In this document: positions 41,608 to 55,348 of the stretch, piece by piece
How the letters are laid out: every line of letters starts with the position of its first letter
How positions within the stretch are numbered: the stretch's first letter is position 1
DNA from: Lysobacterales bacterium 66-474
GTDB lineage: Bacteria; Pseudomonadota; Gammaproteobacteria; Xanthomonadales; Rhodanobacteraceae
Direction of reading: 5' to 3'
NCBI GenBank assembly: GCA_001899805.1
Contig: MKWP01000008.1
Span: forward strand, 80,859-144,858
DNA: 64,000 nt
Position numbers and translations under genes: made by a program
The notes under the pieces: model-generated
The model's database searches: none
Seen by the model: the letters and a program-made list of their open reading frames with translations, nothing else
What the model was told of the DNA's origin: nothing

Positions 41608-42078
41608 TTACTTGCGTTGGGCGTGGTCGCCCGGTTGGTAATGGCCGGGTTCCGATCGAAACGGAATCGCGAGGCGGTTCCAGCCGTTGATGGCGATGAT
41701 CGCGAGCGAGAGGTCCACCAGTTCCTTGTCGTCGAACTGCTTGCGGACTTCCTCGTACAGTTCGTCCGGCACGTCGTTTTGCGAAATGTGGGTCAGCGCT
41801 TCGGTCCATGCCAGTGCCGCGCGTTCGCGTTCGCTGTAGAACGGCGATTCGCGCCATGCATCCAGCAGGTACAGGCGTTGTTCGGTTTCCCCGGCGGCGC
41901 GGGCATCCTTGGAGTGCATGTCGAGGCAATAGGCGCAGCCGTTGATCTGCGAGGCGCGCATCTTCACCAGCTCCATCAGTTTGTGTTCGAGGCCGCATTG
42001 ATCGACGTGCGCTTGCAGCGTGCGCATGGCCTTGAAGCCATCGGGTGAAGCCTTGACGTAGTTGAGGCGTTGCGACAT
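41608..42078 (-). CDS. Carboxymuconolactone decarboxylase (AhpD-like) family protein
   Basis: LMELVKMRASQINGCAYCLDMHSKDA contains the CxxC-type AhpD-fold motif. The family's typical ~155-aa size. Confidence 0.85.
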   Translation of the reverse strand: MSQRLNYVKASPDGFKAMRTLQAHVDQCGLEHKLMELVKMRASQINGCAYCLDMHSKDARAAGETEQRLYLLDAWRESPFYSERERAALAWTEALTHISQNDVPDELYEEVRKQFDDKELVDLSLAIIAINGWNRLAIPFRSEPGHYQPGDHAQRK

Positions 42079-42210
42079 GTACGTAATCTCCAGAGTTGTC
42101 GGCTGTTGTGGAAAGTCAGGCCAGGGAAGGCCGTTCTGGTGTCATTTGGTTTCTGACCGTGCCGGAGATTCTGAACTCCGGGTGGGCAGCGATCAGGGAC
42201 GATCGCACGA

Positions 42211-43161
42211 CTAGTGGAACGGAACCGGCGCGTGGTCGGTCGGCGCAGGGTGCATGAAGAAATCATGCAGGTATTTTTCGCCTTCGTCGTCGAGCACGGT
42301 GACGATGGTCTCGAGCTCGGGATGCTGTTCGCGGATTCGCCGCGCCGCGATCATGTGCGCGCCCGAACTCGGGCCGCAGAACAGGCCGCGCGTGCGTGCG
42401 AGCTTGCGCATTTCCGCGACCGCTTCGGCGCTCGCAACCGCGGTGGTGTCGCGGACGAGGTCGCGATGGTGCGCGAAGATGCCGGGGACGAAACCATCCG
42501 AGATGCCTTCGATCTGGTGCAGCGCGACCTCGCCGCACAGGATGGTGCGCGATTCGGAAGGTTCCATCGCGAACAGCCGCACGTTCGGGTTTACCTTGCG
42601 GAATGCCTGGCCGACGCCGATCAGCGTGCCGCCGGTGCCGACGCCGTGCACGAAGGCGTCGGGGACGCGGCCGTCCGGGAGTTGCGCGAGGATTTCGGGG
42701 CCCAACCACTCGCGGTTTTCCTCGACGTTCCATTCCGACTCGAACTGGCCGGGGAAGAAGAAACCCGGCTGGTTGCCGAGTTCGCGCGCGCGCTCCAGTG
42801 CATCGTTGACGTGGAAGGTGCCGCAGAACAGCACCTCGGCGCCGTAGGCGCGCGAGATCGCGACGCGTTCGCTGGACAGGCCTTCCGGCATCACCACGAG
42901 CATGCGGTAGCCCTTGACCGCGGCCACCATCGCGAATGCGTTGCCGGTGTTGCCGCTGGTGGCTTCGACGATGGTGTCGCCGGGCTTCAGGCGGCCGCTG
43001 GCTTCGGCGCGCTCGACGATGTGTTTGGCGATGCGTGCCTTGATCGAGCCGGACGGGTTGAGGAACTCGCACTTCGCGAAAATGCCGTCGATGTCCAGCA
43101 ACGGCGTGTCGCCGATGGCATCGAGGATATTGGCCGAAAGCCCTGTGTAGCGCGTCGCCAT
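42211..43161 (-). CDS. PLP-dependent cysteine synthase family protein (CysK/CysM/CBS-like)
   Basis: GDTPLL...EFLNPSGSIKARIA (PLP lysine), EATSGNTGNAFA, GVGTGGTLIGVG. Confidence 0.85.
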   Translation of the reverse strand: MATRYTGLSANILDAIGDTPLLDIDGIFAKCEFLNPSGSIKARIAKHIVERAEASGRLKPGDTIVEATSGNTGNAFAMVAAVKGYRMLVVMPEGLSSERVAISRAYGAEVLFCGTFHVNDALERARELGNQPGFFFPGQFESEWNVEENREWLGPEILAQLPDGRVPDAFVHGVGTGGTLIGVGQAFRKVNPNVRLFAMEPSESRTILCGEVALHQIEGISDGFVPGIFAHHRDLVRDTTAVASAEAVAEMRKLARTRGLFCGPSSGAHMIAARRIREQHPELETIVTVLDDEGEKYLHDFFMHPAPTDHAPVPFH

Positions 43162-43281
43162 GGCGTGGGTTCCGATGCGGACTTCGCAGTGTGCGTGCGC
43201 GGCGCGTCGGTTTGAATGATCCACGTCAGCCGGCTTGCGCGGCCGCGACGCAGGCCGCGGCCGCGTGGCGCCAAGGAGGGA

Positions 43282-43710
43282 TCACCAGGATGCGCTGGAG
43301 GATGCCGGCGCGCTGCCGGCCTTGAGCGCGTCGGCTGCCTTGTTGCCGTCGCTGTGGATCGTGTCCAGGTCGGTGGCCTGCAAACCCGCCTCGGCCGCAG
43401 CGAGGGCGCTTTCCAGCTTGCCCTTGAGTGCTGCGTTGCCTTTCGAGTCCGGGATCGCGCCATTGCCCTGGCCCTTGCAGGGTTCGCCCGCGGCGGCGTC
43501 GAAGCCGCTGCCCTTGGGTCCCACCAGGCAATTGATGACGTGGTGCAGGTGCGCGTGTCCGATTTCGACCGTGTCGGCGCTGGCCGCCATCAGCGCATGC
43601 GCGTGCGCGGTGGCGACTTCGTTCGACGCGGAAGGGGTCTGGGCAACTGCGCCGAAGGCGAGTCCGCTCGCCAGTGCTGTGGCGACGCCGGCAGCCAGCA
43701 ACTTGTTCAT
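43282..43710 (-). CDS. Secreted His-rich small protein, unknown function
   Basis: Signal peptide MNKLLAAGVATALASGLAFGAVA; His cluster ATAHAHAL...EIGHAHLHHVINC. It lies 93 nt downstream of the multicopper oxidase. Confidence 0.5.
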   Translation of the reverse strand: MNKLLAAGVATALASGLAFGAVAQTPSASNEVATAHAHALMAASADTVEIGHAHLHHVINCLVGPKGSGFDAAAGEPCKGQGNGAIPDSKGNAALKGKLESALAAAEAGLQATDLDTIHSDGNKAADALKAGSAPASSSASW

Positions 43711-43803
43711 TGCAACCTCCAGTCGATGTTGGGCGGGATCAGGATATTGCAGCGTACGCGCGGCAATGTAATCGGAACGTGTAGCGGCAACGTGGCCTGC
43801 GGA

Positions 43804-45309
43804 TCACACGGTTTCGAACAGCGCCATGAACCCGAAATCCATGTGCTGCTGCATGTGGCAATGGAACAGGGTCAGGCCGGGCTGGTCGGCGGTGAAATCG
43901 ACTTCGGTGGTCTGGAACGGCGGCACCAGCACCACGTCCTTCATCACGCCCGCGGTCGATTGGCCGTGGATGCGGGTGAGCTCGAAGCTGTGGCGATGCA
44001 GGTGCAGCGGATGGATGTCGCCGCTGGCGTTGCGGAACCGCAGGCGGTAGCGCTTGCCGAGGCGCAGCTTGCGCGTGACGGGCATCGTCTTCCAGTCGTA
44101 GGGCACGCCGTTGATCGCATACTGGTCGAAGCCTTCCGCCGCGCTCTGGCGCGCGGTGATCAGCATGTCGATGGTTTCGTCGGGACGCGCGGGTTTGCGT
44201 GCGGGATCGGCGAACAGGCGATAGTCCCACTTGAACGTGGGTGGCGCGTGCCATTGCGGATCGCCGCCGGCACCGGCGTATTCCACGACGATGCCCATGC
44301 CACCCTCGCGGTCGGCATCGATGGTTTCGCCGAGTACCCAGATGCCGGGATGGTTCATCTCGACGATCGCGGAAATGCGCTCAGCGGCGCCCATCCACAA
44401 CACCGGAACCTCGACCGGATGTGGCACCGGGCAGCCGTCCAGCGCGATGACCTTGAAGGCATGGCCGGGCAGCGCGAGGCTGCGGTTGTCGGTGGCGCTG
44501 GCGTTGACGACGTGCAGCAAGACGCGCTCGCCGCGCTTGACGCGGATCGGTTCGCCGTGTCCCAGCGACTTGCCGTTGATCGCGAACGCACCGTAGGCCA
44601 GTTCGTAACCCGGCGGCAGTTTGCCGGCGCCGGGGTCGGCGTTGGCGGCGATCGTCACCAACGGCAGCTCCATGCCCTCCGGCGCCATGAACGGGATGTC
44701 GTTGTCCATGCGCGTGAGGTAGGGCAGGAACTCCTTCAATGTCAGGAACACTTCGCGGTCGTAGGCGCCGGGTTCGTGCTTCGGTTCGATGAAGACGGGG
44801 CCGGCCAGGCCGGTGTAGAGCCCGCGCGCAAGGTTGGCGCCGGCGCGCACGTGCGTGTGGTAGAAGCGCAGTCCCGCCGGCGTCGGCGTGAAGACCTCGC
44901 GGCGATGGCCGTGTGCGGGGACCGGCGGCGTGCGTTCCTCGTCGGCCCCGTCCACGTCGTCGGGCAGGTACTGGCCGTGCCAGTGCACCTGTTCGTCGTG
45001 GTCGGTGTCGTTGTAAATGTCGACGACGGTGCGCCGGCCCTGCCTGAAGCGCAGCAGCGGGCCGGGGAAATCGCCGTTGTACAGGGTGGTCGAGACGAGT
45101 TTTTCGGGGCCGAGTTCCAGCACCCCGGTGGCGATGCGCAAGCTGTAGTCGGCCTTGCCGACGATGCCCGCCGTCGGCGCGGTGCCCGGCTGGTGCATGG
45201 ATTGGGTGCGTGCCAGGGCATCCGAGGCAGGCGCGAGCCCCGCGGCCAGGGCCGAGAGGCCGGCACTCTTCAGGAAATCGCGGCGATCCACGTTCGGTTC
45301 CTTCGGCAA
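43804..45309 (-). CDS. Tat-exported multicopper oxidase (CopA/laccase-like)
   Basis: Twin-arginine signal VDRRDFLKSAGLSALAAG. Copper ligand motifs HWHG, HTH, HPLHLH and HCHMQQHMDFGFM. Confidence 0.88.
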   Translation of the reverse strand: MPKEPNVDRRDFLKSAGLSALAAGLAPASDALARTQSMHQPGTAPTAGIVGKADYSLRIATGVLELGPEKLVSTTLYNGDFPGPLLRFRQGRRTVVDIYNDTDHDEQVHWHGQYLPDDVDGADEERTPPVPAHGHRREVFTPTPAGLRFYHTHVRAGANLARGLYTGLAGPVFIEPKHEPGAYDREVFLTLKEFLPYLTRMDNDIPFMAPEGMELPLVTIAANADPGAGKLPPGYELAYGAFAINGKSLGHGEPIRVKRGERVLLHVVNASATDNRSLALPGHAFKVIALDGCPVPHPVEVPVLWMGAAERISAIVEMNHPGIWVLGETIDADREGGMGIVVEYAGAGGDPQWHAPPTFKWDYRLFADPARKPARPDETIDMLITARQSAAEGFDQYAINGVPYDWKTMPVTRKLRLGKRYRLRFRNASGDIHPLHLHRHSFELTRIHGQSTAGVMKDVVLVPPFQTTEVDFTADQPGLTLFHCHMQQHMDFGFMALFETV

Positions 45310-45502: not shown

Positions 45503-46507
45503 TCAGCTCGATTTGCGCCAGTTCAGCTTGACGACGTGGTCGTTCTCTTGTGTCGGTTCCGACAGTGTCGCACCGCCGTTGCCGGTCATCGTGATCAGCG
45601 AGGCGCCGCTGAGGTTGTCGATGCGCCCCGAGCCGCCGGCGATGCATTCGTCGAAGTAGCACGCGGCATAGTCGGTGAGGTTGGCGACCGATCCTCCGAC
45701 CGTGGGACGCTCGACGATCCACTCGGCCACGTTGCCGGTCAGCGTCGTGCCGCGCGGTGGGGTGATCTCGAAACGCGTGCCGACGCCTTCCGACTGGTTG
45801 CTGAAGTAGACCGTGGCGTGGCTGGTGGTGTCGGCGCAGATCAGGCAATACATCACGTCGCCCGCCGAGACGGGCAGGTTGCCGATCTTCACCTCGCCCG
45901 CGGGAAACCACTCCCACCACGTGTAGACCTGCGCGGCGGTGATGAACCAGATCTTCGTGATCTGGGTTTCAGTTCCCGCCTGCAGCACGTCGTTGGAATT
46001 CCAGCCGTCGATGCCGACCCACTCCGACGCGTAATAGGCGCCGTCAGTCCGGGTGTTCGGACTCGGCACGGTCCACTGGCCGCCGACGAAGCCGTACGGC
46101 TTGCCGGCCGGCGAGAAGTCCGCCGCACCGGACCAGTTGTTGGACGTGGCGTTGGAAATGCCCGCCGTACCCAGACGCGCGCTGACGGCGCGACGGCCGG
46201 AGCCACGCGCCGGGCCGTGCTTGATGTGCTCGCGATGCTCGAACTCGGGGGCAATCCACAGCCGGGTGCGTGACATCACCCCGTCCCAGAGCCTGCGCAA
46301 CTGCGGCTCGGTTTTGGCGTCGGGGCGGCGTGGCAACCGGTAGGCCGCAAGCTGCCGGGCCGTTGCCTTCATCGGGTCGAACCTCTCCGGCAGCGGACCC
46401 AGGGCTCGTATCCGGAAACCCTTGCGGGTCAGCGTTTCCGGGACGAATCCCGCCGGTTCCCGCGTCTTTCTGCCGCTCCTGCTTCCACGCGCGCCTGAGG
46501 TTGCCAT
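45503..46507 (-). CDS. Peptidase family G1 (eqolisin / scytalido-aspergilloglutamic peptidase type) with a ~120-aa N-terminal pro-region and no signal peptide
   Basis: Blocks SNNWSGA, ASEWVGIDGWNSNDVLQAGTE, WWEWFPAGEVKIGNLPVSAGD and NVAEWIVERP line up with the SGP/AGP blocks SSNWAGA, AWVGIDG...LQTG (catalytic Gln), YEWYP...SVSAGD and AEWIVEDF (catalytic Glu), as I recall them. Confidence 0.75.
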   Translation of the reverse strand: MATSGARGSRSGRKTREPAGFVPETLTRKGFRIRALGPLPERFDPMKATARQLAAYRLPRRPDAKTEPQLRRLWDGVMSRTRLWIAPEFEHREHIKHGPARGSGRRAVSARLGTAGISNATSNNWSGAADFSPAGKPYGFVGGQWTVPSPNTRTDGAYYASEWVGIDGWNSNDVLQAGTETQITKIWFITAAQVYTWWEWFPAGEVKIGNLPVSAGDVMYCLICADTTSHATVYFSNQSEGVGTRFEITPPRGTTLTGNVAEWIVERPTVGGSVANLTDYAACYFDECIAGGSGRIDNLSGASLITMTGNGGATLSEPTQENDHVVKLNWRKSS

Positions 46508-46594
46508 GACGGTTCTCCATTTTGTGGTTGATCGGTGTCGGCGGCCCGGGAGTGCGGTTCAACAGGCGCCGGCGTCCGGGTTCGGTTCGCCTGC

Positions 46595-47896
46595 TCACTC
46601 CGCATCGGGGGCCGGTGGGCAGCAGCGGTACTCCTGCGATTTATCGAGCAGCGCGATCTGCTTCTGCAGCAGATCGTTCTCCAGCTTCTTGCGCTCGACG
46701 TCGAGTTGGATGGATTTCAGGCGCGTGTCCTCGCACACATTGCAATCATCGAGGCAGCCCTTGACCAGGATGCCGGGTGTCGGCAGCGACGACTGCCGCA
46801 CGAATGAGTATCGCTTCTGCGCGTCGGTGGACACCTTGCCGTTCTTGTCCAGCAGCCCTTCCTTCACCAGCTCGTCCTGCACCTGCTTGAGCGCTTGCGC
46901 GCGCAACGCGGCGGCCAGAACGGGGATCTGCAATCGGAACGCCGTCGCGACGCCGATCCGGTCGCTGTTGGAGGGGCTGGTCGCGGCCTGCAGATAAGTT
47001 GCGCTGCGCTTGGCGTCGGTGGACAGCACGCCGTTGGAAAGCACGCCGACGCCGGTGCTGGGCGCGAGCGGGTTGGCCGCGACCCGGGTGAAGTCGTTGG
47101 CGGGGTCGGTGTCCATCATCGCCCGCAGATCGACGGACTCCAGCGTGTAGCTGATCGTCTGGGTCTTGTTGATCTGGTAGAAGAAGAACGTCACCGCGTG
47201 GCAGTCGTTGCCGTTCTGGAACTCGCGCGAGGCGGATTCGTAGTGGTCCTGCGACTCGCTCTCGGTATGCGTGCGGCTTTCGGATTCGCCGATCGACACG
47301 CTGGAGGCCTTGCGTACGCCCATCTCTGCCGCGCGTGACGAGGATTGCGCGTGCTGGCTGTGTTCACCAAGGAAATCCGAAACGGAATTCGAATCGAAAT
47401 TGCCGCTCATGCTGGCCGAGCCGCCCAGGCCGAAGATGTTCACGCCGGCGTCGGCCTTGCCGTCCACGTGCGAATGCGACTGGTTGCTGGAGTGGGCCTC
47501 GTCGCGCGAATTCACGTCGAACAGCGAGTCGCTCATCTGCTGCATGAAGAACGATTCTTCCGACGACTGCGAATTGCGATAGCCGAACTTGCTCTCACTG
47601 TCGAAGGTGAACTTGGAGCGGCGGTCGGACGTGAACAGCCGCACCTTCTCGCCCGGCAGCAAGGTCGTGGTGTAGAGCAGATCGCCCAGCGCGAGCGGTC
47701 CGCGACAGCGCTTCAGGTGGAAATGCAGCTTGACTTCGACCGGGATGGTCGGCAGCGCGACCGTGCCGGGCTGGGAGCCGGCCGTGGCCGGGTAGGTCAG
47801 GCGGTAGAAGAAATCCAGTTCATCGCACACCTTGTCCGGTTCGAGGACCGGGCAGCAGGGCATGGTTTGTTGTTTGGTGTCGGTCTGGGCGGCCAT
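46595..47896 (-). CDS. Hypothetical 433-aa protein: terminal Cys-Cys motifs, Ser/Glu/Asp/His-rich centre, C-terminal coiled coil
   Basis: AGGAGA RBS before ATG 47896; high-GC3 codons. PCCP near the N-terminus and RCCPP near the C-terminus; heptad-like LKSIQLDVERKKLENDLLQKQIALLDKSQ. No family recognised. Confidence 0.6.
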   Translation of the reverse strand: MAAQTDTKQQTMPCCPVLEPDKVCDELDFFYRLTYPATAGSQPGTVALPTIPVEVKLHFHLKRCRGPLALGDLLYTTTLLPGEKVRLFTSDRRSKFTFDSESKFGYRNSQSSEESFFMQQMSDSLFDVNSRDEAHSSNQSHSHVDGKADAGVNIFGLGGSASMSGNFDSNSVSDFLGEHSQHAQSSSRAAEMGVRKASSVSIGESESRTHTESESQDHYESASREFQNGNDCHAVTFFFYQINKTQTISYTLESVDLRAMMDTDPANDFTRVAANPLAPSTGVGVLSNGVLSTDAKRSATYLQAATSPSNSDRIGVATAFRLQIPVLAAALRAQALKQVQDELVKEGLLDKNGKVSTDAQKRYSFVRQSSLPTPGILVKGCLDDCNVCEDTRLKSIQLDVERKKLENDLLQKQIALLDKSQEYRCCPPAPDAE

Positions 47897-47937
47897 CGCG
47901 AATCTCCTGTCGGCTTTGCAATCGATTTGCACGTGCA

Positions 47938-48195
47938 TTACGTGCATCGTCGAAAAATGCCTTTCTTGAGCAACCCGGCGACATCGCGGGCGTCCACGGA
48001 CTGCACGGCGCGGCCGACGGCGAATGGATAGGCATGTCCGCTGACGGCGCCACGCACCACGATCGGAGCCGCGCCGAGGTAGCGGATCGGCGCCTTGGCG
48101 CGCAGCGCGGCATCACCGACCACGTGCGCGATCCCGCCCACCGCAACGCGCGGCGCCCTCGGCGATTGAATCGCCTGACTAGCTCTCAGTGCCAT
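47938..48195 (-). CDS. Small hypothetical protein (85 aa, or 93 aa from ATG 48219)
   Basis: The ORF overlaps the DUF1360 3' end by 17-41 nt, with coding-like GC3. Core is IRYLGAAPIVVRGAVSGHAYPFAVGRAVQSVDARDVAGLL. No family recognised. Confidence 0.45.
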   Translation of the reverse strand: MALRASQAIQSPRAPRVAVGGIAHVVGDAALRAKAPIRYLGAAPIVVRGAVSGHAYPFAVGRAVQSVDARDVAGLLKKGIFRRCT

Positions 48196-48553
48196 CCGGC
48201 CTTGACCGCAACACGACATGTTCGTTGTTCTCCGGAAAATGGGACGGCTCCACCTGCAGTGCGGTGCGTTCCGGGCCCAGACGCTCCAGCAGGCACGCCG
48301 CGCCGGAAACGGCCAGCCAGGCCGGTACCCAAGCCAGCGCCGGGCCGGTGACGATGAAAGTGAAGGGGATGGCGATCCATAGCGAAAGGCATTGAAAACA
48401 GTCCATCAGGGTTCCCAACACGCTGGTCCCGAATTTCGATCGCAGCTTCAGGATCAAATCCGCCGGCCCGTCTTCCTCCGCGAGCAGGTGCGTGACCCGC
48501 CAGGTTCCCAGCGCGGCCAGCGCAAGCGCGAACCATGGGTCGATGGCGTTCAC
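48179..48553 (-). CDS. DUF1360-like membrane protein
   Basis: 124 aa. LGTWRVTHLLAEEDGP...LMDCFQCLSLWIAIPF resembles the DUF1360 signature (amphipathic W-R-x-T-x-L helix plus a CxxC-x-S-x-W TM segment), from recollection. Confidence 0.65.
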   Translation of the reverse strand: MNAIDPWFALALAALGTWRVTHLLAEEDGPADLILKLRSKFGTSVLGTLMDCFQCLSLWIAIPFTFIVTGPALAWVPAWLAVSGAACLLERLGPERTALQVEPSHFPENNEHVVLRSRPDGTES

Positions 48554-48587
48554 GATCCTTTGGATTCGCGTTCCGCTGCCCGCGCAG

Positions 48588-50921
48588 TCACCGTGGGCCG
48601 TCTCCGTCCGCCCCGCCTGCGCGCGGCGGCGGGCATACTCCCGGACACAGGTCCGGGCGCAGCACGGTGAACGAAAGCTCGAACTGGTTGAAATGCGTCA
48701 CGCTCGGGTCCGAACAACCGTTGGTGGTGCGCTTCCATGCCCACAGCCGGAACAGGTAGGCGCAGCACTCCGGGAAATCGGAGCCGTGCAGCACGACCTT
48801 GAAATCTCCGCCGTACCAATGCGCACGCGGCGCGCCCTGGCCCAGCGCCTGGCTGTAGCTCGGTCCGAACTCCGCGGTCGGATCGGCGGCCAATGCGCCG
48901 ACGCCGCCGGTTGCGTCCACGTACGACGGCGCCGTGATGTAGAAGGCCTGGTTGGCGCCGTACTCCGCCCGCAACCAGTACCCGCCGAGATGGCCGTCCT
49001 GCACCGTCGCCGGACACGTGACGCTGAAATGGATCGTCAGGGTGTCGGTGGGCTCCAGTCGCGCGATGTCGCAGGCCGAAACGCATTCCTGTCCCGGCAA
49101 TCCCTCGTTCTTCCAGATCTCGCGGATCCAGCAATCCGGCTCCACCGTGCACATGTGGATGATGCCGCCGCAGGCATGCGGAATCTTGCACGGCGCAGGC
49201 AGCGACGGGCCGGGGTGCAGCATCGCCTGGTTGTCGATGCGCAAGTACACCTGTTCCGCAGTGTCTTCGCCGCAGGTCGGCAGGATGCGCTCGCTCGTCG
49301 CGATCAGGTTGTCGGAGGCGTCCGCCGCGAAACCGTCGAACTGCAACTGGTACAGCGCATCGGGGGTGAGTCCCGGTTGCGTCGTGTCGAAATAGAACAA
49401 TGTGGCGTAATCGTTCCAGATCACCTGTCCGCCGAAGCGCGGAATGCCCGGATTGAGCTCCTCGTAGTGATGACGGCTGACGATCACCAACTGTCCGTTC
49501 TTGAGGATGGGCGTGAAGGCCACCGCCACGAACGAGGTGCCATCCCAGTAGCTGCGCGTGAATCCTCCGAACGCCGGACTCGGCAGGTCGGCCCACGGTG
49601 CGCCGTCCTTCGAGTACCGCACCTTGAAGTAGTCCACGTCCCAGCCGACGCCACCTTGTATCTGCAGCGATCCGTAGAACGGATTGTCCTTCCATGGATC
49701 GGCGTCCACCGCGCGGGTGCGCGCGTAGCCGCGCAGGTCCGGAGGCCCCGCGTCGGCGCCGATCAAATCCACCGGCGTGCAGCCGACCCAGGTCAGCTTC
49801 AGGCATTCCGGGCACTCCGGATCGCGGCAGGTCGGGATGCAGCACGCGAGATCGTTGGCGATCAAGGTCACGTTCAACGTGGTCGGAATGTCCCAGCGCG
49901 TCTGCGCGTTGGTTTCCGTGTAGATCACGTTGATGCGGTCGCCGCAGCGCTGGGTGGCGCGGAACACCACGTCCGGCGCGCAATCGCTCCAGTTCCACCA
50001 CGGCCAGACGTGCAGTGCCGCCAGTTCGGGCGAAGCCGGCAGCGTGGCGCGCAAGGCCTCCGCCGAAATCGCGCCGGCCGGCTGCTGCACCGCGGGCAGC
50101 GACAACGCGCCTTGCGTTGCGGCGGCCAGCACCGGTCCCGGCAGGCCCGCGGCGCCGCCCAGCAATTGCTGGAACACCGTCGGGTCCGGATCGGGGCCGG
50201 GCGGGATTGGCGGCAGCGGAGGTTGCGCGGTCGCGAGCAGTTGCTGGATGCGCGTCAGGATGTCGGGGTCGATCGCGGGGTTGGGACGCAGCCACGGCAG
50301 CCAGCGCAGGCAGCACCAGCGGAAACTGATGTGGAAGTTGCCGTTGATGTCGGTGACGGCGCTGGTGATCAGGTCGCGCCAGTACCACCACCAGAAACGA
50401 TCCACGTCCCAGGCTTCGACCACCGCGCCGGGAACCGGCTCGTCGCAGAACCGCCAGCGGTGCAGCTTCGGATCGTAGTACCAGTGCCGGCAGACGATGC
50501 GGCCATTGATCGTGTAGGTCCGGCAGCAGATCAGCCAGCACCAGTAGATCGCCGGTTCGACCGCGATGCGGCCGATTTTCAGTTCCGCGCTCCTGACGGC
50601 GGCCGTCTTCGCGGTGCCGCGTTCCTTGAGGTGGGCCAGTTCGACCACCTGCTTGACGGTGTCGATGGACAGGAACTCGCGGTCCGCCAGGTTGGGCCCG
50701 GCGACCAGGACGACCGGGCAGGGCAGGCGCGCCCCCGGGAGGACCGGCGGCTCGAACTCCACCTCGAATGGCAGGCGCCGTTGCTTCGCGCTTCCCGCCT
50801 TGAGGACGGCCGAGCCGAGCACGCTTCCCTCGCGCACCACGGCCACGCGCAAATCCAGGTCCGACTTGTATTGCTCGTCCGGAATCTGGCTCAGATCGAG
50901 TTCGCCGGTGATCCTGGCCAT
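48588..50921 (-). CDS. Hypothetical 777-aa Cys/Trp-rich protein with a carboxypeptidase-regulatory-like beta-sandwich segment
   Basis: GGGAGG RBS before ATG 50921. This frame has diverse composition and high GC3, while two other long ORFs at the locus are Arg/Gly/Pro-rich. About 29 Cys by my count (CC pairs, CIPTCRDPECPEC cluster) and many Trp (FWWWYWRD). GRIVCRHW...VPGAVVEAWDVD...TDINGNFHISF looks like a CarboxypepD_reg fold. Confidence 0.65.
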   Translation of the reverse strand: MARITGELDLSQIPDEQYKSDLDLRVAVVREGSVLGSAVLKAGSAKQRRLPFEVEFEPPVLPGARLPCPVVLVAGPNLADREFLSIDTVKQVVELAHLKERGTAKTAAVRSAELKIGRIAVEPAIYWCWLICCRTYTINGRIVCRHWYYDPKLHRWRFCDEPVPGAVVEAWDVDRFWWWYWRDLITSAVTDINGNFHISFRWCCLRWLPWLRPNPAIDPDILTRIQQLLATAQPPLPPIPPGPDPDPTVFQQLLGGAAGLPGPVLAAATQGALSLPAVQQPAGAISAEALRATLPASPELAALHVWPWWNWSDCAPDVVFRATQRCGDRINVIYTETNAQTRWDIPTTLNVTLIANDLACCIPTCRDPECPECLKLTWVGCTPVDLIGADAGPPDLRGYARTRAVDADPWKDNPFYGSLQIQGGVGWDVDYFKVRYSKDGAPWADLPSPAFGGFTRSYWDGTSFVAVAFTPILKNGQLVIVSRHHYEELNPGIPRFGGQVIWNDYATLFYFDTTQPGLTPDALYQLQFDGFAADASDNLIATSERILPTCGEDTAEQVYLRIDNQAMLHPGPSLPAPCKIPHACGGIIHMCTVEPDCWIREIWKNEGLPGQECVSACDIARLEPTDTLTIHFSVTCPATVQDGHLGGYWLRAEYGANQAFYITAPSYVDATGGVGALAADPTAEFGPSYSQALGQGAPRAHWYGGDFKVVLHGSDFPECCAYLFRLWAWKRTTNGCSDPSVTHFNQFELSFTVLRPDLCPGVCPPPRAGGADGDGPR

Positions 50922-51058
50922 GGTCGCCTCCCTTGGCGCGCACCACTCGGCGCGCAGTGACGGGGATGGCGAGCATGCGGCGCGGCAAGGCCGCGTGGTT
51001 AGAACCAAGCTGCGCTCGAATGGGACGATTCTGCGCCGTGTGCAGCAGGTGGTATCGG

Positions 51059-51850
51059 CTACGAAGCTTGCGTGCGTGGCTGGAAGTGACGCTGGTACTG
51101 GGTCGCGGGCACGCCGACGAAGCGCCGGAACATGCGTCCGAAATGCGACAGGTCGTTGAAGCCGACCGCGTACGCGACCTGCGAGACCGAAGCGTCGGGT
51201 TCGGCCAGGAAGTCGCGCGCCTTGGCGATGCGGTACTGCAGCAGGAAGCGCCGGAACGACAACCCGTGCTCACGATGGAAGTCGCGGCTGAACTCCGACT
51301 CGGACAGATGGCAGAGCCCGGCCACCATTTCGATGCGGACCGGCTCTCCGTAGTGCTCGCTGATCCACGCGATGGCTGCCGCGGTATGGCGCGCCGCGAT
51401 CAACGGCTTGCGCAAATGCCCGGCAGGTGCGAGCAGGTCAGGTGGAAACGGGTCGATCTGCCATCCGTTCGACGACGCGGATTCGGCCGCATGTGTCAGG
51501 GCTTCGATCAGGCGAGCGAGGGTCACGGCGGTGACCGGCTTCACCCTGTAATCCCAGACCCGTGAGCGGAACGCCCAGATCGCGAGCGCCTCGGAGTGAT
51601 ACTCGGTGAACATCAACACAGGCAGCTCGGGAAATCCGTGCCGCACCAGCGGCACCGCCCGCAAACGTCCCTGGTCGGGGTAGTCGTATTCGATGCAGAA
51701 GAATTGCGGCCGGTGTTCTGCAACGGTGCCGTGGATGTCCTCGATCCGTGAGATACGCAGCGCGTCGCAATAGGGCTCGGCATCCGGACAGAGGCCACAT
51801 TGCTGCGGGATGCACCGCAAATCCAGCCAGACGGCTCGCGGAGTCACCAT
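51059..51850 (-). CDS. AraC/XylS-family transcriptional regulator with a receiver-like N-terminal domain
   Basis: C-terminal double HTH (IEMVAGLCHLSESEFSRDFHREHGLSFRRFLLQYRIAKARDFL...VSQVAYAVGFNDLSHFGRMFRRFVGVPATQY). The N-terminal ~120 aa have a CheY-like pattern (PVLMFTEYH, DYRVKP). Confidence 0.85.
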   Translation of the reverse strand: MVTPRAVWLDLRCIPQQCGLCPDAEPYCDALRISRIEDIHGTVAEHRPQFFCIEYDYPDQGRLRAVPLVRHGFPELPVLMFTEYHSEALAIWAFRSRVWDYRVKPVTAVTLARLIEALTHAAESASSNGWQIDPFPPDLLAPAGHLRKPLIAARHTAAAIAWISEHYGEPVRIEMVAGLCHLSESEFSRDFHREHGLSFRRFLLQYRIAKARDFLAEPDASVSQVAYAVGFNDLSHFGRMFRRFVGVPATQYQRHFQPRTQAS

Positions 51851-52088
51851 GCCTGCACCATGCACGCATTCGGCCCCTGATGTCCATTTCGCAGTCGGGC
51901 TTGCGAACCGGCTGCGCGATCGAACCGCTACGCTACCGCCGATGCCGGCGGCTGGAGTGAGGCCGCCGTCACACCTGCGAGTGGATGGCATCCGTTGCGG
52001 CGTCGAAGCGGGCAGGCTGGAGCCATTCCCCAACGCGCAAACAAGATTTCCGGTTTCGCGCGGGGCGACGCTCCGCGATACTTGCCGG

Positions 52089-54020
52089 GTGACCAAGGTA
52101 GTCGACGATCCTGCCGCTTCTGCACTGCTCGGCGCCGAGGGCCCGTTTGCGTGCGAGGTGCCGAACTTCGCGCCTCGCGAAACGCAGCAGCGGATGGCCG
52201 ATGCGGTGGCGGACGCGATCGACAGCCGCGACGCGCTGGTGGTCGAAGCCGGCACCGGCACCGGCAAGACCTTCGCGTATCTGGTGCCGGCGTTGCTCTC
52301 CAGCAAGCGGGTGATCGTCTCGACCGGCACGCGCAACCTGCAGGACCAGTTGTTCCACCGCGACCTGCCCCGCGTGCTGTCGATCCTGGGCGCGAAAGCC
52401 GACGTCGCGTTGCTGAAGGGCCGCGCCAATTACCTGTGCCGCTATCGCCTGCAGCAGACGATCGAATCGGGCCAGTTCAGGTCGCGCACGCAGGTGGACG
52501 ATTTGCAGAAGGTGCGCGCGTGGGGCGCGCGCACGCGTACCGGCGATCGCGCGGAATTGATCGAAGTGCCGGAAGGCTCGCCGCTGTGGCCGCGCGTCAC
52601 GTCCACCGCCGAGAATTGCCTCGGCACGGAATGCCCGCTGTACGACGACTGCTTCGTGTTCAAGGCGCGCCGTCGCGCGCAGGATGCCGACATGGTGGTG
52701 GTGAACCATCACCTGTTGCTGTCCGACCTCGCACTGAAACGCGAAGGTTTCGGGGCGATCCTGCCGGAGGCCGAGGCCTACATCCTCGACGAGGCGCACC
52801 AGTTGCCGGAGCTCGCGGGGCAGTATTTTTCGGTCGGCGTCAGCGCGCGCCAGGTGAAGGAACTCACCGCCGACGCGTTGGCCGAATGCGCGGGCCAGCC
52901 GGGCGCGTTGGCGTTGCTGCAGCCGGCGCTGGACTCGGTGAATGAAGCACTGCGCAAGGCGCGGCTTGCCTTCGACACCTTGCCGAAGCGCGGCGCGTTC
53001 GCGCAACTGGAGGCCGACGCGGGAGCGGCCGAGGCACTGGAAAACCTGGGTGATGCGCTGGCCGACCTGGCCGGCGCGCTGATGGGGCAGGCCGAGCGTT
53101 CCAAGGGCCTCGCCAGCGTGCACGCGCGTTGCGTGGTGCTGGACCAGCGCCTGCAGCGGATCGCCGGTCGCGACGGCGAGGACGAGGTGCGCTGGTACGA
53201 GTTGTCCGACCACGGGTTCGAACTGAGCGCGACGCCGCTGGATCTCGCGCCGCAATTGCGGACGTTGCGCAACGCCACCGAGGCGGCGTGGATCCACACC
53301 TCGGCCACGCTTGCGGTCGCCGGACACTTCGATCACTTCACGCGCCAGATGGGCCTGGTCGATCCAGTGACGCTGGACCTCGGCAGCCCCTTCGATTACG
53401 CGCGCCAGGCGTTGTGCTGGCTGCCGCCGGGGTTGCCGGAACCGGCAGCACGCGACTACACGCAGCGTGTGATCGAAACCGTGCGGCCGGTGCTGGAAGC
53501 GTCGAAGGGTCGCGCGTTCCTGCTGTTCACTTCGCATCGCGCGTTGCGACTGGCGGCCGAGCTGTTGGCCGACGCGCCGTGGCCGCTGTTCGTGCAGGGC
53601 ACGGCGCCGCGTCATCAACTGCTTTCCGACTTCCGCGATTCCGGCAACGGGGTGCTGCTGGGCGCCGCGAGTTTCTGGGAAGGCGTGGATGTGGCCGGCG
53701 AAGCCCTGAGCGTGGTGGTGATCGACAAGCTGCCGTTCGCCTCGCCCGACGATCCGGTGCTGCAGGCGCGGCTCGACGCGGTGCGTCGCGCGGGCGGCAA
53801 TCCGTTCCGCGACTGGCAGATTCCGGCCGCGGCGATCGCGCTGAAGCAGGGCGCGGGACGCCTGATCCGCGACGTGCACGATCGCGGCGTGCTGGTGTTG
53901 TGCGATCCGCGCATCGCCAGCAAGTCGTACGGAAAATTGTTCCTCGCCAGCCTGCCACCGATGCCGCGCACGCGCGAACTCGCCGACGTGCAGCGGTTTT
54001 TCGGTGACATGACCGCTTGA
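52089..54020 (+). CDS. ATP-dependent DNA helicase, DinG/YoaA (XPD/Rad3-like, Fe-S) family
   Basis: VEAGTGTGKTFAYLVP Walker A, four-Cys Fe-S module (NYLC...ENCLGTECPLYDDC), DEAH box (ILDEAHQL), C-terminal FWEGVD and KQGAGRLIR motifs. GTG start inferred; 643 aa matches YoaA size. Confidence 0.85.
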   Translation: MTKVVDDPAASALLGAEGPFACEVPNFAPRETQQRMADAVADAIDSRDALVVEAGTGTGKTFAYLVPALLSSKRVIVSTGTRNLQDQLFHRDLPRVLSILGAKADVALLKGRANYLCRYRLQQTIESGQFRSRTQVDDLQKVRAWGARTRTGDRAELIEVPEGSPLWPRVTSTAENCLGTECPLYDDCFVFKARRRAQDADMVVVNHHLLLSDLALKREGFGAILPEAEAYILDEAHQLPELAGQYFSVGVSARQVKELTADALAECAGQPGALALLQPALDSVNEALRKARLAFDTLPKRGAFAQLEADAGAAEALENLGDALADLAGALMGQAERSKGLASVHARCVVLDQRLQRIAGRDGEDEVRWYELSDHGFELSATPLDLAPQLRTLRNATEAAWIHTSATLAVAGHFDHFTRQMGLVDPVTLDLGSPFDYARQALCWLPPGLPEPAARDYTQRVIETVRPVLEASKGRAFLLFTSHRALRLAAELLADAPWPLFVQGTAPRHQLLSDFRDSGNGVLLGAASFWEGVDVAGEALSVVVIDKLPFASPDDPVLQARLDAVRRAGGNPFRDWQIPAAAIALKQGAGRLIRDVHDRGVLVLCDPRIASKSYGKLFLASLPPMPRTRELADVQRFFGDMTA

Positions 54021-54166
54021 GGAGCGTCCGTTGCCTGGAAAGCGGCGCGCCGCAACGTTGGGTCTCTGTGCTTCGCGTGGCCGCCCCGCGATGCCTGCGG
54101 CAGGACCTCTCCCTGCGGCGATCCGGGTCGTCCGAGCTTGAAAACGAGCGATCGAGACAAGATGTC

Positions 54167-55348
54167 ATGGAGTGGATCCGAGAAGAGAGACCCGCCCACA
54201 TGGACCAGCTGGCCAACGACTATCCGGATGCGATCCTGGCCCCGCGCGAGCCGCCCTGCCTCTCGCTTTACCAGCCCACCCACCGCAGCCACCCGGACAA
54301 GGCGCAGGATCCCATCCGCTATCGCAACCTGCTGAAGACCCTGGCCGGCTCGCTTCGCGAGAAATACGCCAAACGCGAAGTCGGCGAGCTGCTGGACCCG
54401 CTGCACGCGCTGGCCGACGACGTCCAGTTCTGGAACCATGCGCGTGACGGGCTGGCGGTGCTGGCTGCACCAGGTTTTTTCCGTGCCTACAAACTGCAGC
54501 GCCCGGTGCCGGAGCTGGCGGTAGTCGCGGACAGTTTCCACACCAAGCCGCTGGTGCGGATCATGCAATCGGCGGAGCGTTTCCACGTGCTGGGCCTGGA
54601 CCGGCATCGCGCCCGTCTGTTCGAAGGCAATCGCGACCACCTCGACGAAATCCCGTTGGCCCCGGAAGTGCCCGATTCGCTGGAGGCCGCACTGGAGCGC
54701 GACTACAGCCGCGATCGCGACATCCGCACCCATGGTCCGATCCGCGATGCGGGCAAGATGGGCCGCCACGGCAAGAGCAACGTCAAGCAGGACGCGATCC
54801 GCGCCGATACCGAGCAGTTTTTCCGGATCGTCGACCGCGGGATCCTCGAGCACCATTCCCGGCCCGCCGGATTGCCGCTGCTGCTGGCCGCGCTTCCGGA
54901 ACACCACCATCTGTTCCGCGAAGTCAGTCAGAACCCGCACCTGCTCGATGCCGCGATCGACGTGAATCCCGACGATTTGTCGCTGGACGAACTGCGTGCG
55001 CGTGCGTGGGAAATCATGCTGCCGCATTACCTCGCGCGGCTGGACGGGTTCATCGAGCGCTTCAATGCCGCGCGTTCCCGTGGCCAGGCCACGGCCGATC
55101 TTGCCGATGCCGCGCGCGCCGCGGCGGCGGGGCGCATCGACGTGCTGCTGCTGGATGCGAGCCTGCAGGTGCCCGGCCGGATGGCATCCGACGGCGCCAT
55201 CACGCTCGGCAAACTGGATGCCCCCGATACCGACGACCTGCTCGATGACCTTGGCGAACGCGTGCTCAAGGCCGGGGGCGAGGTCGTGGTGGTGCCGCCA
55301 GAGCGCATGCCGGCCGACCACGGACTGGCCGCAATCTACCGGTTCTGA
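54167..55348 (+). CDS. eRF1/Pelota-like (bacterial 'baeRF'-type) domain protein, tentative
   Basis: 393 aa. The C-terminus GGEVVVVPPERMPADHGLAAIYRF resembles the aRF1/Pelota domain-3 ending (GGIAAILRY). Central HVLGLDRHRARLFEG is like the 'start of beta-sheet' segment in those families. Recollection only. Confidence 0.45.
   Translation: MEWIREERPAHMDQLANDYPDAILAPREPPCLSLYQPTHRSHPDKAQDPIRYRNLLKTLAGSLREKYAKREVGELLDPLHALADDVQFWNHARDGLAVLAAPGFFRAYKLQRPVPELAVVADSFHTKPLVRIMQSAERFHVLGLDRHRARLFEGNRDHLDEIPLAPEVPDSLEAALERDYSRDRDIRTHGPIRDAGKMGRHGKSNVKQDAIRADTEQFFRIVDRGILEHHSRPAGLPLLLAALPEHHHLFREVSQNPHLLDAAIDVNPDDLSLDELRARAWEIMLPHYLARLDGFIERFNAARSRGQATADLADAARAAAAGRIDVLLLDASLQVPGRMASDGAITLGKLDAPDTDDLLDDLGERVLKAGGEVVVVPPERMPADHGLAAIYRF

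Follow-up and report, generated by a model that had tools for sequence, protein, structure and literature searches.

Several described kinds of systems bring together proteins without signal peptides, proteases or small membrane proteins. The parasporal proteins of Bacillus thuringiensis have no signal peptides and are activated by proteolysis. In the operons of bacterial gasdermins (bGSDM), a cytoplasmic protein of ~250-450 aa, also without a signal peptide, is encoded beside a protease gene, and its N-terminal cysteine is palmitoylated (10.1101/2021.06.07.447441). The characterised G1 peptidases, in turn, are acid-active enzymes (PMC3009609, PMC6154417). In this work, we analyse a minus-strand locus of six genes in a 64-kb stretch of DNA from Lysobacterales bacterium 66-474 (contig MKWP01000008.1), hereafter the window. 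The locus encodes an AraC/XylS-type regulator, a cysteine- and tryptophan-rich protein of 777 aa, a DUF1360-type membrane protein, a small protein of 93 aa, a protein of 433 aa and a G1 (eqolisin) glutamic peptidase. It is a lineage-specific elaboration of a widespread, uncharacterised three-gene module, which comprises the genes of the 777-aa protein, the DUF1360 protein and the small protein.

At least 154 relatives of the 777-aa protein were found among 185,579 species-representative genomes in the GTDB, distributed among Gamma-, Beta- and Alphaproteobacteria, Acidobacteriota, Bacteroidota, Chloroflexota, Gemmatimonadota, Desulfobacterota, Campylobacterota and Actinomycetes, with one more in an archaeal metagenome-assembled genome (MAG) of the Methanosarcinales. 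A profile of each window protein was run against the six-frame open reading frames (ORFs) of 79 GTDB species-representative loci that carry the 777-aa gene; scanned loci are labelled by L-numbers. Homologues of both the DUF1360-type and the 93-aa protein are encoded directly beside the 777-aa gene in 63 of the 79 loci, in more than ten phyla, and all three genes lie on one strand in 62 of the 63. The DUF1360 gene adjoins the 777-aa gene in 64/79 loci. The gene order is 777-aa, DUF1360, small in 46 loci, and DUF1360, small, 777-aa in 16. The junction between the DUF1360 gene and the small gene is an overlap or a gap of at most 20 nt in 56/62 loci, which argues for translational coupling and for a stoichiometric pair of products. 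We conclude that the triad is co-inherited across many phyla and that its DUF1360 and small genes are translationally coupled. Among the neighbours of the 777-aa gene in the 79 loci, no further gene family recurs across lineages.

Given this distribution, it is scarcely credible that the genes form no functional unit, being neighbours by descent in one clade with unrelated roles. The flanking context does vary widely between lineages, the 777-aa gene is without its partners in 14/79 loci, and most 433-aa genes are solitary. However, the triad is kept across more than ten phyla, in two permuted orders and with coupled junctions, and the 433-aa gene rejoins it independently, even beside a divergent paralogue of the 777-aa gene. 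The first-pass annotation of the window had read the genes as one system and named a lack of synteny elsewhere as a finding that would speak against it; the homologues are syntenic in other genomes.

The other three genes of the window locus are accessory. Beside the 777-aa gene, the AraC gene is found in 11/79 loci, the peptidase gene in 7/79 and the 433-aa gene in 10/79. All three are limited to the clade closest to the window, except that the 433-aa gene also occurs elsewhere (e.g., L021, L041). The complete six-gene order is found in the closest Rhodanobacteraceae-type relatives (L010, L012-L014, L017, L088-L089 and L120), and in L011 and L090 as far as their contigs reach, which end before the AraC gene. 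The peptidase and the AraC regulator were added in Rhodanobacteraceae-type bacteria, giving the six-gene operon of the window.

The 433-aa gene has a wider distribution of its own. In 80 metagenomic loci obtained with the profile of this protein, it is usually solitary and has no conserved neighbour; in 11/80 of them, triad genes are found at a distance of a few kb, in varying gene orders. In a Sulfurimonas MAG (L041), it is directly downstream of the 777-aa gene, with neither the DUF1360 gene nor the small gene. It stands beside the peptidase gene only in the closest clade (6/79 and 6/80 loci); it is present without the peptidase gene in L001, L018, L019, L021 and L041, and the peptidase gene is present without it in L015. 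Upstream of the solitary 433-aa genes no common 8-mer was found, the best one occurring in 6/34. The 433-aa gene joined the triad repeatedly and independently, in separate lineages.

Hence, it is highly probable that the architecture is modular, built on a core triad that a fourth partner joins recurrently and that a peptidase and a regulator extend in one clade. This changes the picture given by the first-pass annotation, in which an AraC-headed operon followed the logic of a protease-gated system. The six-gene unit holds in the closest clade, yet the AraC gene, with 11/79 loci, is not its organiser, and a peptidase found in seven loci of that clade does not provide the organising logic; the conserved unit consists of the 777-aa, DUF1360 and ~90-aa proteins.

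The peptidase matches Peptidase_A4 (PF01828) with E = 5.4e-38 and 131 bits, against a cut-off of 22.3, over residues 123-326 and model positions 1-202 of 206. Its catalytic dyad is conserved in phmmer alignments with 1S2B/1Y43 (VLQAG for ILQTG; AEWIVE for AEFIIE/AEWIVE), the Gln and Glu matching those of the scytalidoglutamic (Gln53/Glu136) and aspergilloglutamic peptidases. The domain is preceded by a basic N-terminal extension of ~120 aa, and no signal peptide was found by hydropathy (maximum 19-residue value of 1.18). Based on the model match and the dyad, the product is assigned to the G1 family, as had been proposed, although the secreted pre-pro-enzyme feature of the family is missing. 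In a locus without the DUF1360 and small genes (L171:4811-12704), the homologue of the 777-aa gene is flanked by the genes of a papain-like Peptidase_C1 and of a 1015-aa Peptidase_S8; differing proteases may thus recur beside the 777-aa protein.

The regulator matches HTH_18 (E = 3.4e-23), HTH_AraC (E = 2.4e-12) and, weakly, Response_reg (E = 0.03); many AraC-type NCBIfam models match it at domain level, and none at the equivalog cut-off. A 37-nt motif (AATCGT...GCGCA...GGTTCTAAC) forms a conserved block in the alignment of upstream regions. It occurs a single time in the window, where 0 matches are expected by chance, and each of 13 AraC-bearing loci (among them L001, L009, L010, L012, L013, L015, L020, L088, L089, L093 and L120) has just one copy of its degenerate form. 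It is always just upstream of the 777-aa gene, between it and the AraC gene, including in a Burkholderiaceae locus and in a locus where only a remnant of the 777-aa gene is left. The motif is a plausible operator or promoter of the AraC-type regulator.

The membrane protein of the window matches DUF1360 (PF07098) with E = 8e-5 and 23.0 bits, against a cut-off of 21, over model positions 48-99 only, which is the C-terminal half. The same model is matched by 9/10 diverse homologues, 7 of them above the cut-off. Judged by these scores (17-26 bits, with partial model coverage), the module contains a divergent DUF1360 subfamily. The homologues have 95-135 aa, three hydrophobic helices and a charged, acidic C-terminal tail; the window protein presents transmembrane-like windows at 49-89 in addition to a hydrophobic N-terminal helix. 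The motifs WRxTHL, EDGP and DCFxCxSxW are invariant in the homologue alignments, and relatives of the protein are found in phages (phrog_781). In the literature searched, DUF1360 is mentioned only in passing, and no functional study of DUF1360, of yjcA or of a Rhodanobacter-linked glutamic peptidase was found. The Bacillus subtilis sporulation gene yjcA, which we take to be a DUF1360 member, is controlled by σE. To our knowledge, the module is the first case of DUF1360 with fixed genomic partners.

The N-terminus of the small protein reads M-[S/T/G/A/P or none]-C-C-G-x-x-R/K in all 79 homologues, save that two from Bacteroidota have C-N-C-G instead. It is followed by a variable linker of 25-70 residues and a C-terminal domain of ~50 residues (Y.G...V.G..TG..Y.F....VD..D). 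A lenient Pfam scan of 35 members of the family found no relative. A pair of cysteines beside basic residues at the N-terminus is a classic palmitoylation context in eukaryotes.

The coupled DUF1360/small pair, the cysteine pair at the tip with its basic residues, and the membrane-proximal CxxC together suggest an inner-membrane complex. We propose that the DUF1360 protein and the small protein would associate in a stoichiometric complex on the cytoplasmic side of the inner membrane. The small protein would be fixed there by its tip, through acylation or through the CxxC of the DUF1360 protein, with which the tip would share a metal or form a disulfide. The C-terminal β-domain of the small protein would then recruit the 777-aa protein, plus the 433-aa protein where present. 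Such recruitment would either build an assembly that is tethered to the membrane and stabilised by cysteines, or pass the proteins on for non-classical export; the peptidase may process or turn over a component, and the operon would be switched on by the AraC protein. Taken as one joint claim, the modular unit and its membrane-anchored, cysteine-mediated assembly or hand-over is advanced tentatively, as possible rather than probable. A more specific reading is a long shot: the DUF1360 protein could be a small membrane S-acyl- or thiol-transferase that, with its invariant His and its Asp-Cys-x-x-Cys, acts on or clasps the cysteine pair of its partner, and possibly the PCCP and RCCP ends of the 433-aa protein would be modified as well. 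If true, this would give a dedicated cysteine-based membrane-anchoring pathway for a large assembly with immunoglobulin (Ig)-like domains on or across the inner membrane, and a first function for DUF1360.

The 777-aa protein contains 29 cysteines and 29 tryptophans, in agreement with its earlier description as rich in both, and has 97 homologue clusters in a large protein collection. Its AlphaFold2 (AF2) model is all-β and multidomain, with a mean predicted local distance difference test (pLDDT) score of 82.7. It presents an N-terminal sandwich (1-98), a transthyretin/CarboxypepD_reg-like sandwich (112-205), a proline-rich linker of low confidence (~206-305) and further sandwiches up to residue 760. 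The protein is thus confidently modelled as a chain of Ig-like β-sandwiches. When the model was compared by Foldseek with the PDB and viral libraries, only generic arrays of Ig, FN3 or MG domains were matched (E ~1e-4, template modelling (TM) score <= 0.2), including complement C3/C4, PrgB, integrin legs, pilins and phage Ig proteins.

CarboxypepD_reg (PF13620), which the first-pass annotation had listed for a search, is not matched by the window protein at E <= 0.1; it is matched by 11/43 homologues, with a best E = 2.4e-5, and covers one of at least five domains. The Peptidase_A4 and DUF1360 matches listed with it were found, the latter weak and partial. No other consistent weak family appeared in a lenient Pfam scan of 43 members of the 777-aa family, whose profile matches nothing among PDB sequences even at E <= 10. 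None of the aligned homologues has a hydrophobic N-terminus.

Thirteen cysteines of the 777-aa protein are near-invariant and fall into three groups (133/144/203/204, 314/326/360/361/373 and 550/617/720/736). The variable cysteine columns are gained and lost in pairs, a pattern that is confounded by sequence relatedness, and the cysteine counts of the homologues show no bias towards even numbers. Cysteine co-variation was considered as an arbiter between disulfides and metal binding, and fails on account of both this relatedness and the absence of an even bias.

These features bear on a different reading, in which the folded, signal-less 777-aa protein, the 433-aa protein and the peptidase leave the cell by non-classical release. 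The DUF1360 protein would be a holin-like or small export gate and the small protein a regulator or targeting factor; disulfides would form and the peptidase would become active outside, and the products would serve as an adhesin layer of the surface or matrix, or as a group of inclusion-type toxins released on lysis. The 777-aa protein does resemble multi-Ig surface proteins (PrgB, AgI/II, pilins, MG domains), if only generically, and its variable cysteine columns come and go pairwise. G1 enzymes are acid-active (PMC3009609, PMC6154417), and the dyad is intact in the window peptidase. The size, the three helices, the charged tail and the phage relatives of the DUF1360 protein point the same way, as does the lack of a signal peptide in every soluble product. 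However, no conserved peptidoglycan hydrolase or secretion gene is found nearby, and the cysteine counts have no even bias. The DUF1360 protein has polar and cysteine residues that are invariant across phyla, which is not known of holins, and its C-terminal tail is acidic, not basic; moreover, the module is also found in strict anaerobes and in the archaeal MAG. We consider release of this kind unlikely.

The cysteines could also indicate a thiol, metal or redox module, in which proteins with vicinal cysteines and a CxxC membrane protein bind or traffic a thiophilic metal or Fe-S, or buffer oxidative or copper stress. Cysteine pairs are present in three products (MxCCG in the small protein, PCCP/RCCP in the 433-aa protein and CC pairs in the 777-aa protein) in addition to the CxxC of the membrane protein. 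The invariant cysteines of the 777-aa protein form groups of 4-5, the 433-aa protein contains Cx3Cx2C, and genes for a multicopper oxidase, a His-rich periplasmic protein and an AhpD-like protein follow on the same strand in the window. Genes of the OsmC thiol peroxidase family lie near the module in Massilia (L005:6497-7809) and in another lineage (L172:4283-4606). Such metal or redox neighbours are not kept across lineages, though, no metal-binding family is matched, and a 777-aa multi-Ig scaffold would be odd as a metal carrier. This reading is very unlikely.

More than 2080 clusters of homologues (E <= 1e-3; 60-93% identity) make up the family of the 433-aa protein, and none of them has a name. 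Identity is 60-65% between the window protein and those of Methylocella, Acidobacteriota and Chthoniobacterales. An N-terminal domain (~20-270) has long β-hairpins and two near-invariant segments, rich in Ser, His, Asp and Gly, that are unstructured in the AF2 model; after a variable linker (~271-330), there is a conserved C-terminal domain with Cx3Cx2C, a 35-residue helix and a terminal RCCP. Together with the N-terminal PCCP, this places a cysteine pair at each end of the protein (residues 14-15 and 425-426), as previously noted. The model is mediocre (pLDDT of 61), and its Foldseek comparison with the PDB gave nothing significant (E >= 0.35, probability <= 0.07, TM <= 0.12). The top non-significant matches (E 0.35-3) are mostly β-pore-forming toxins, i.e., parasporin-2, Cry78Aa, monalysin, aerolysin and leukocidins, a theme that serves as a lead only. 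The profile of the 433-aa family matches nothing among PDB sequences even at E <= 10, and a lenient Pfam scan of 44 members found no consistent weak family. Against 1.84 billion representatives, the profile gave 545 matches, all to the same family or its fragments, with no informative fusions or bridges.

The first-pass annotation had leaned towards a protease-gated effector, and a version of it can be formulated around this protein. In it, pore formation or cell death would be the latent activity of the 433-aa protein: the N-terminal domain would form the pore, the C-terminal domain would inhibit it, and the cytoplasmic G1 peptidase would activate the protein by cleaving the linker, following the logic of gasdermins and their proteases or of the aerolysin propeptide. 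Its two conserved domains are split by a variable linker of low confidence, it has long β-hairpins and a near-invariant, Gly/Ser-rich and partly amphipathic segment (148-170), its top matches are mostly the toxins mentioned above, and the peptidase gene is directly downstream. Its N-terminal cysteines, moreover, recall the palmitoylated bacterial gasdermins (10.1101/2021.06.07.447441). Against this, none of those matches is significant, the protein has no match in PADLOC, Pfam or PDB sequences, and residues 198-226 alternate between Ser/Thr and charged residues, a pattern that is not lipid-facing. Toxins and immune effectors do not usually keep an identity of 60-65% across phyla. The peptidase accompanies the 433-aa protein in one clade only and each occurs without the other, and the acid pH that G1 enzymes need is hard to square with a cytoplasmic activator. 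Finally, the locus lies outside defence islands, no plasmid match was found for the 433-aa or 777-aa protein, and no viral-contig match for the former. These results place no product in a defence or effector family. A protease-gated effector is quite unlikely, and conceivable only as a lineage-specific add-on.

Several points also weigh against the membrane-anchored assembly that we favour. The 777-aa gene lacks both partners within 10 kb in 14/79 loci, even with lenient thresholds, and most 433-aa genes stand by themselves. In two loci, the 777-aa gene is reduced to a remnant beside otherwise intact genes: it has collapsed in frame to ~59 N-terminal and 32 C-terminal residues (L091:8675-9280 and L093:1908-2702), and both loci retain intact AraC, DUF1360, small and 433-aa genes, with L091 also retaining the peptidase gene and the contig of L093 stopping inside the 433-aa gene. 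Because the remnant loci keep the other genes, the parts of the module are not strictly interdependent. A very divergent paralogue of ~730-755 aa (E 1e-16 to 1e-21) occupies the place of the 777-aa protein in L094:6844-11230 and L144:947-5303; it has only the CarboxypepD_reg-like and 'PDITFRVTQ' regions in common with the 777-aa protein, and it keeps the DUF1360, small and 433-aa genes, in an order that differs between both loci.

The site of the assembly presents a further difficulty, as many conserved cysteines, an Ig-like fold and an acid peptidase would suit an extracytoplasmic site better than the cytoplasm, yet no export signal or secretion gene was found at the loci scanned. An outside destination is therefore argued for by the fold, the cysteines and the acid-type peptidase, and argued against by the absence of signal peptides and of secretion or lysis genes.

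The features of the locus are presented in Table 1. All six ORFs were confirmed, and the same products in the same order (263/777/124/93/433/334 aa) had been called independently in public annotations of two contigs that are identical to the window. The intergenic distances are, in gene order, 137, 34, -41 (an overlap, of the DUF1360 and small genes), 41 and 87 nt, and a Shine-Dalgarno-like site of GGAG/AGGA type lies 4-9 nt upstream of each of the six starts. For the small gene, two starts had been offered, 48219 and 48195; the former is retained and the latter dropped, because the MSCCG N-terminus is kept in homologues. The start of the 433-aa gene at 47896 is backed by homologue alignment. 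Given that all five non-regulator products have conserved homologues, the genes are far beyond chance ORFs.

Table 1. Coordinates of the six-gene locus, its upstream motif and adjacent genes in the window.
Feature	Position	Strand	Description
AraC/XylS-type regulator	51850-51059	-	263 aa; receiver-like N-terminal domain; lineage-specific accessory
Intergenic motif	50998-51034	-	37 nt, GCAGAATCGTCCCATTCGAGCGCAGCTTGGTTCTAAC; candidate operator/promoter for AraC-type regulator
Cysteine/tryptophan-rich Ig-like protein	50921-48588	-	777 aa; first core component
DUF1360-type membrane protein	48553-48179	-	124 aa; three hydrophobic helices; second core component
Small cysteine-pair-tipped protein	48219-47938	-	93 aa; third core component
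Orphan cysteine-capped protein	47896-46595	-	433 aa; recurrent accessory partner
G1 (eqolisin) glutamic peptidase	46507-45503	-	334 aa; lineage-specific accessory
Multicopper oxidase	43804-45309	-	Tat signal; downstream of peptidase gene
His-rich protein	43282-43710	-	142 aa; signal peptide; downstream of module
PALP/cysteine-synthase-like gene	42211-43161	-	Downstream of module
CMD/AhpD-like gene	41608-42078	-	Downstream of module
DinG-like helicase	51810-54020	+	Divergent from AraC gene; DEAD (weak) / Helicase_C_2 in public calls
baeRF-family (bacterial eRF1-like) protein	54017-55348	+	443 aa; start overlapped 4 nt by DinG-like helicase gene

The GC content at third codon positions (GC3) is 0.73-0.87 in the six genes and alike in neighbouring ones, and by hydropathy, a hydrophobic N-terminus or a transmembrane-like window is seen in the DUF1360 protein only. 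No Pfam, NCBIfam, PHROG or PADLOC family is assigned to the 777-, 433- and 93-aa products. The first-pass annotation is thus upheld as regards the six co-directional genes and their coordinates, the native codon usage, the lack of signal peptides in the soluble products and the position of the 777-aa, 433-aa and small proteins outside characterised families. The search of PADLOC-DB v2 with all six products gave 0 families at E <= 0.1. NCBIfam and PHROGs gave, for all products, only the AraC models, a compositional Ser-rich match and phrog_781 for DUF1360. A profile-profile comparison found no internal homology among the small, 433-aa and 777-aa proteins. Plasmid collections were searched with the 433-aa and 777-aa proteins and viral contigs with the 433-aa protein only, both without a match. 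In the window, the promoter/terminator scan showed no excess over shuffled controls and the Rfam scan gave no match.

The closest genomic relatives are Rhodanobacteraceae/Lysobacteraceae MAGs, with 93-94% identity in the 777-aa protein. The copper/thiol theme of the genes at 41608-45309 (-) is confined to the lineage of the window. On the other side, the DinG-like helicase and the baeRF-family protein may work as a pair of their own, in conflict or in ribosome rescue. The module of Massilia and Pseudoduganella has FHA, FtsW/RodA-like and kinase-FGE-sulfatase genes at its flanks.

As a fixed, coupled module across phyla, the triad turns separate hypothetical proteins into a testable unit. Three of the families concerned (777-, 433- and ~90-aa) have no Pfam, NCBIfam, PADLOC or PDB-sequence relative, and DUF1360 is a fourth, of no known function. 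Experimental handles include the invariant Met-x-Cys-Cys-Gly tip, the membrane CxxC, the confident multi-Ig model and culturable hosts, i.e., Massilia sp. Root351 and Root418, Pseudoduganella spp., Dyella choica and Desulfosediminicola flagellatus. Lipidation or clasping of the cysteine tip, if it takes place, would represent a new bacterial way of anchoring proteins; export of signal-less proteins by the module, if that is its role, would be a new release route. Should neither hold, it is still a well-defined conserved cluster of unknown function.

In comparison with bGSDM-protease operons, the 433-aa protein shares the size range, the N-terminal cysteines, the cytoplasmic, signal-less character and the protease gene alongside (10.1101/2021.06.07.447441), as well as a two-part architecture with a possibly cleavable variable linker or tail. 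However, no gasdermin sequence or fold was found for it in PADLOC (E <= 0.1), in Pfam (44 family members) or among the 50 best PDB Foldseek matches. The module protease is a G1 glutamic peptidase instead of a caspase-like, trypsin-like or CHAT protease and is missing from most loci, and the 433-aa protein is exceptionally conserved and mostly solitary. With aerolysin/ETX-MTX2, parasporin-2, Cry78Aa and Tpp80, it shares an elongated, β-hairpin-rich model and Ser-rich conserved segments. It differs from these toxins in the scores of its model (E >= 0.35, TM <= 0.12, pLDDT of 61), in having no Pfam match and in presenting three ~30-residue helices but no clearly lipid-facing amphipathic hairpin.

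Like holins and the type 10 secretion system, the module encodes a small membrane protein of three helices and a charged tail next to large signal-less proteins, and phages carry DUF1360 relatives. Nevertheless, no peptidoglycan hydrolase or other conserved neighbour is present in the 79 and 80 loci, and the DUF1360 protein of the module is conserved across phyla with invariant Cys, His, Asp and Arg. We know of no holin system with a tightly coupled partner tipped by a cysteine pair. The 777-aa protein resembles multi-Ig surface proteins (PrgB, AgI/II C-domains, pilins and the MG arrays of α2-macroglobulin and complement) in its chain of β-sandwiches (E ~1e-4) and in the CarboxypepD_reg-like domain detected in some homologues. 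It differs in its low TM score (<= 0.2), in the absence of a signal peptide, LPXTG, lipobox or thioester motif, in its many conserved cysteines and tryptophans, and in its pairing with the DUF1360 and small proteins (63/79 loci). The membrane protein itself agrees with DUF1360 (PF07098) in being small, in its CxxC...W motif and in a score above the gathering cut-off, while the module form is divergent and has fixed genomic partners.

Hence, by profile match, family membership is assigned only to the AraC regulator, to the G1 peptidase, minus its secretion signal, and to DUF1360, as a divergent member. No multi-gene system fits, since gasdermin-protease operons, aerolysin-type toxins, PADLOC defence systems and holin/type 10 secretion each fail in a defining feature that was tested. 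Although an unknown function is not the same as a new mechanism, the module is rated as lying outside every known kind of system.

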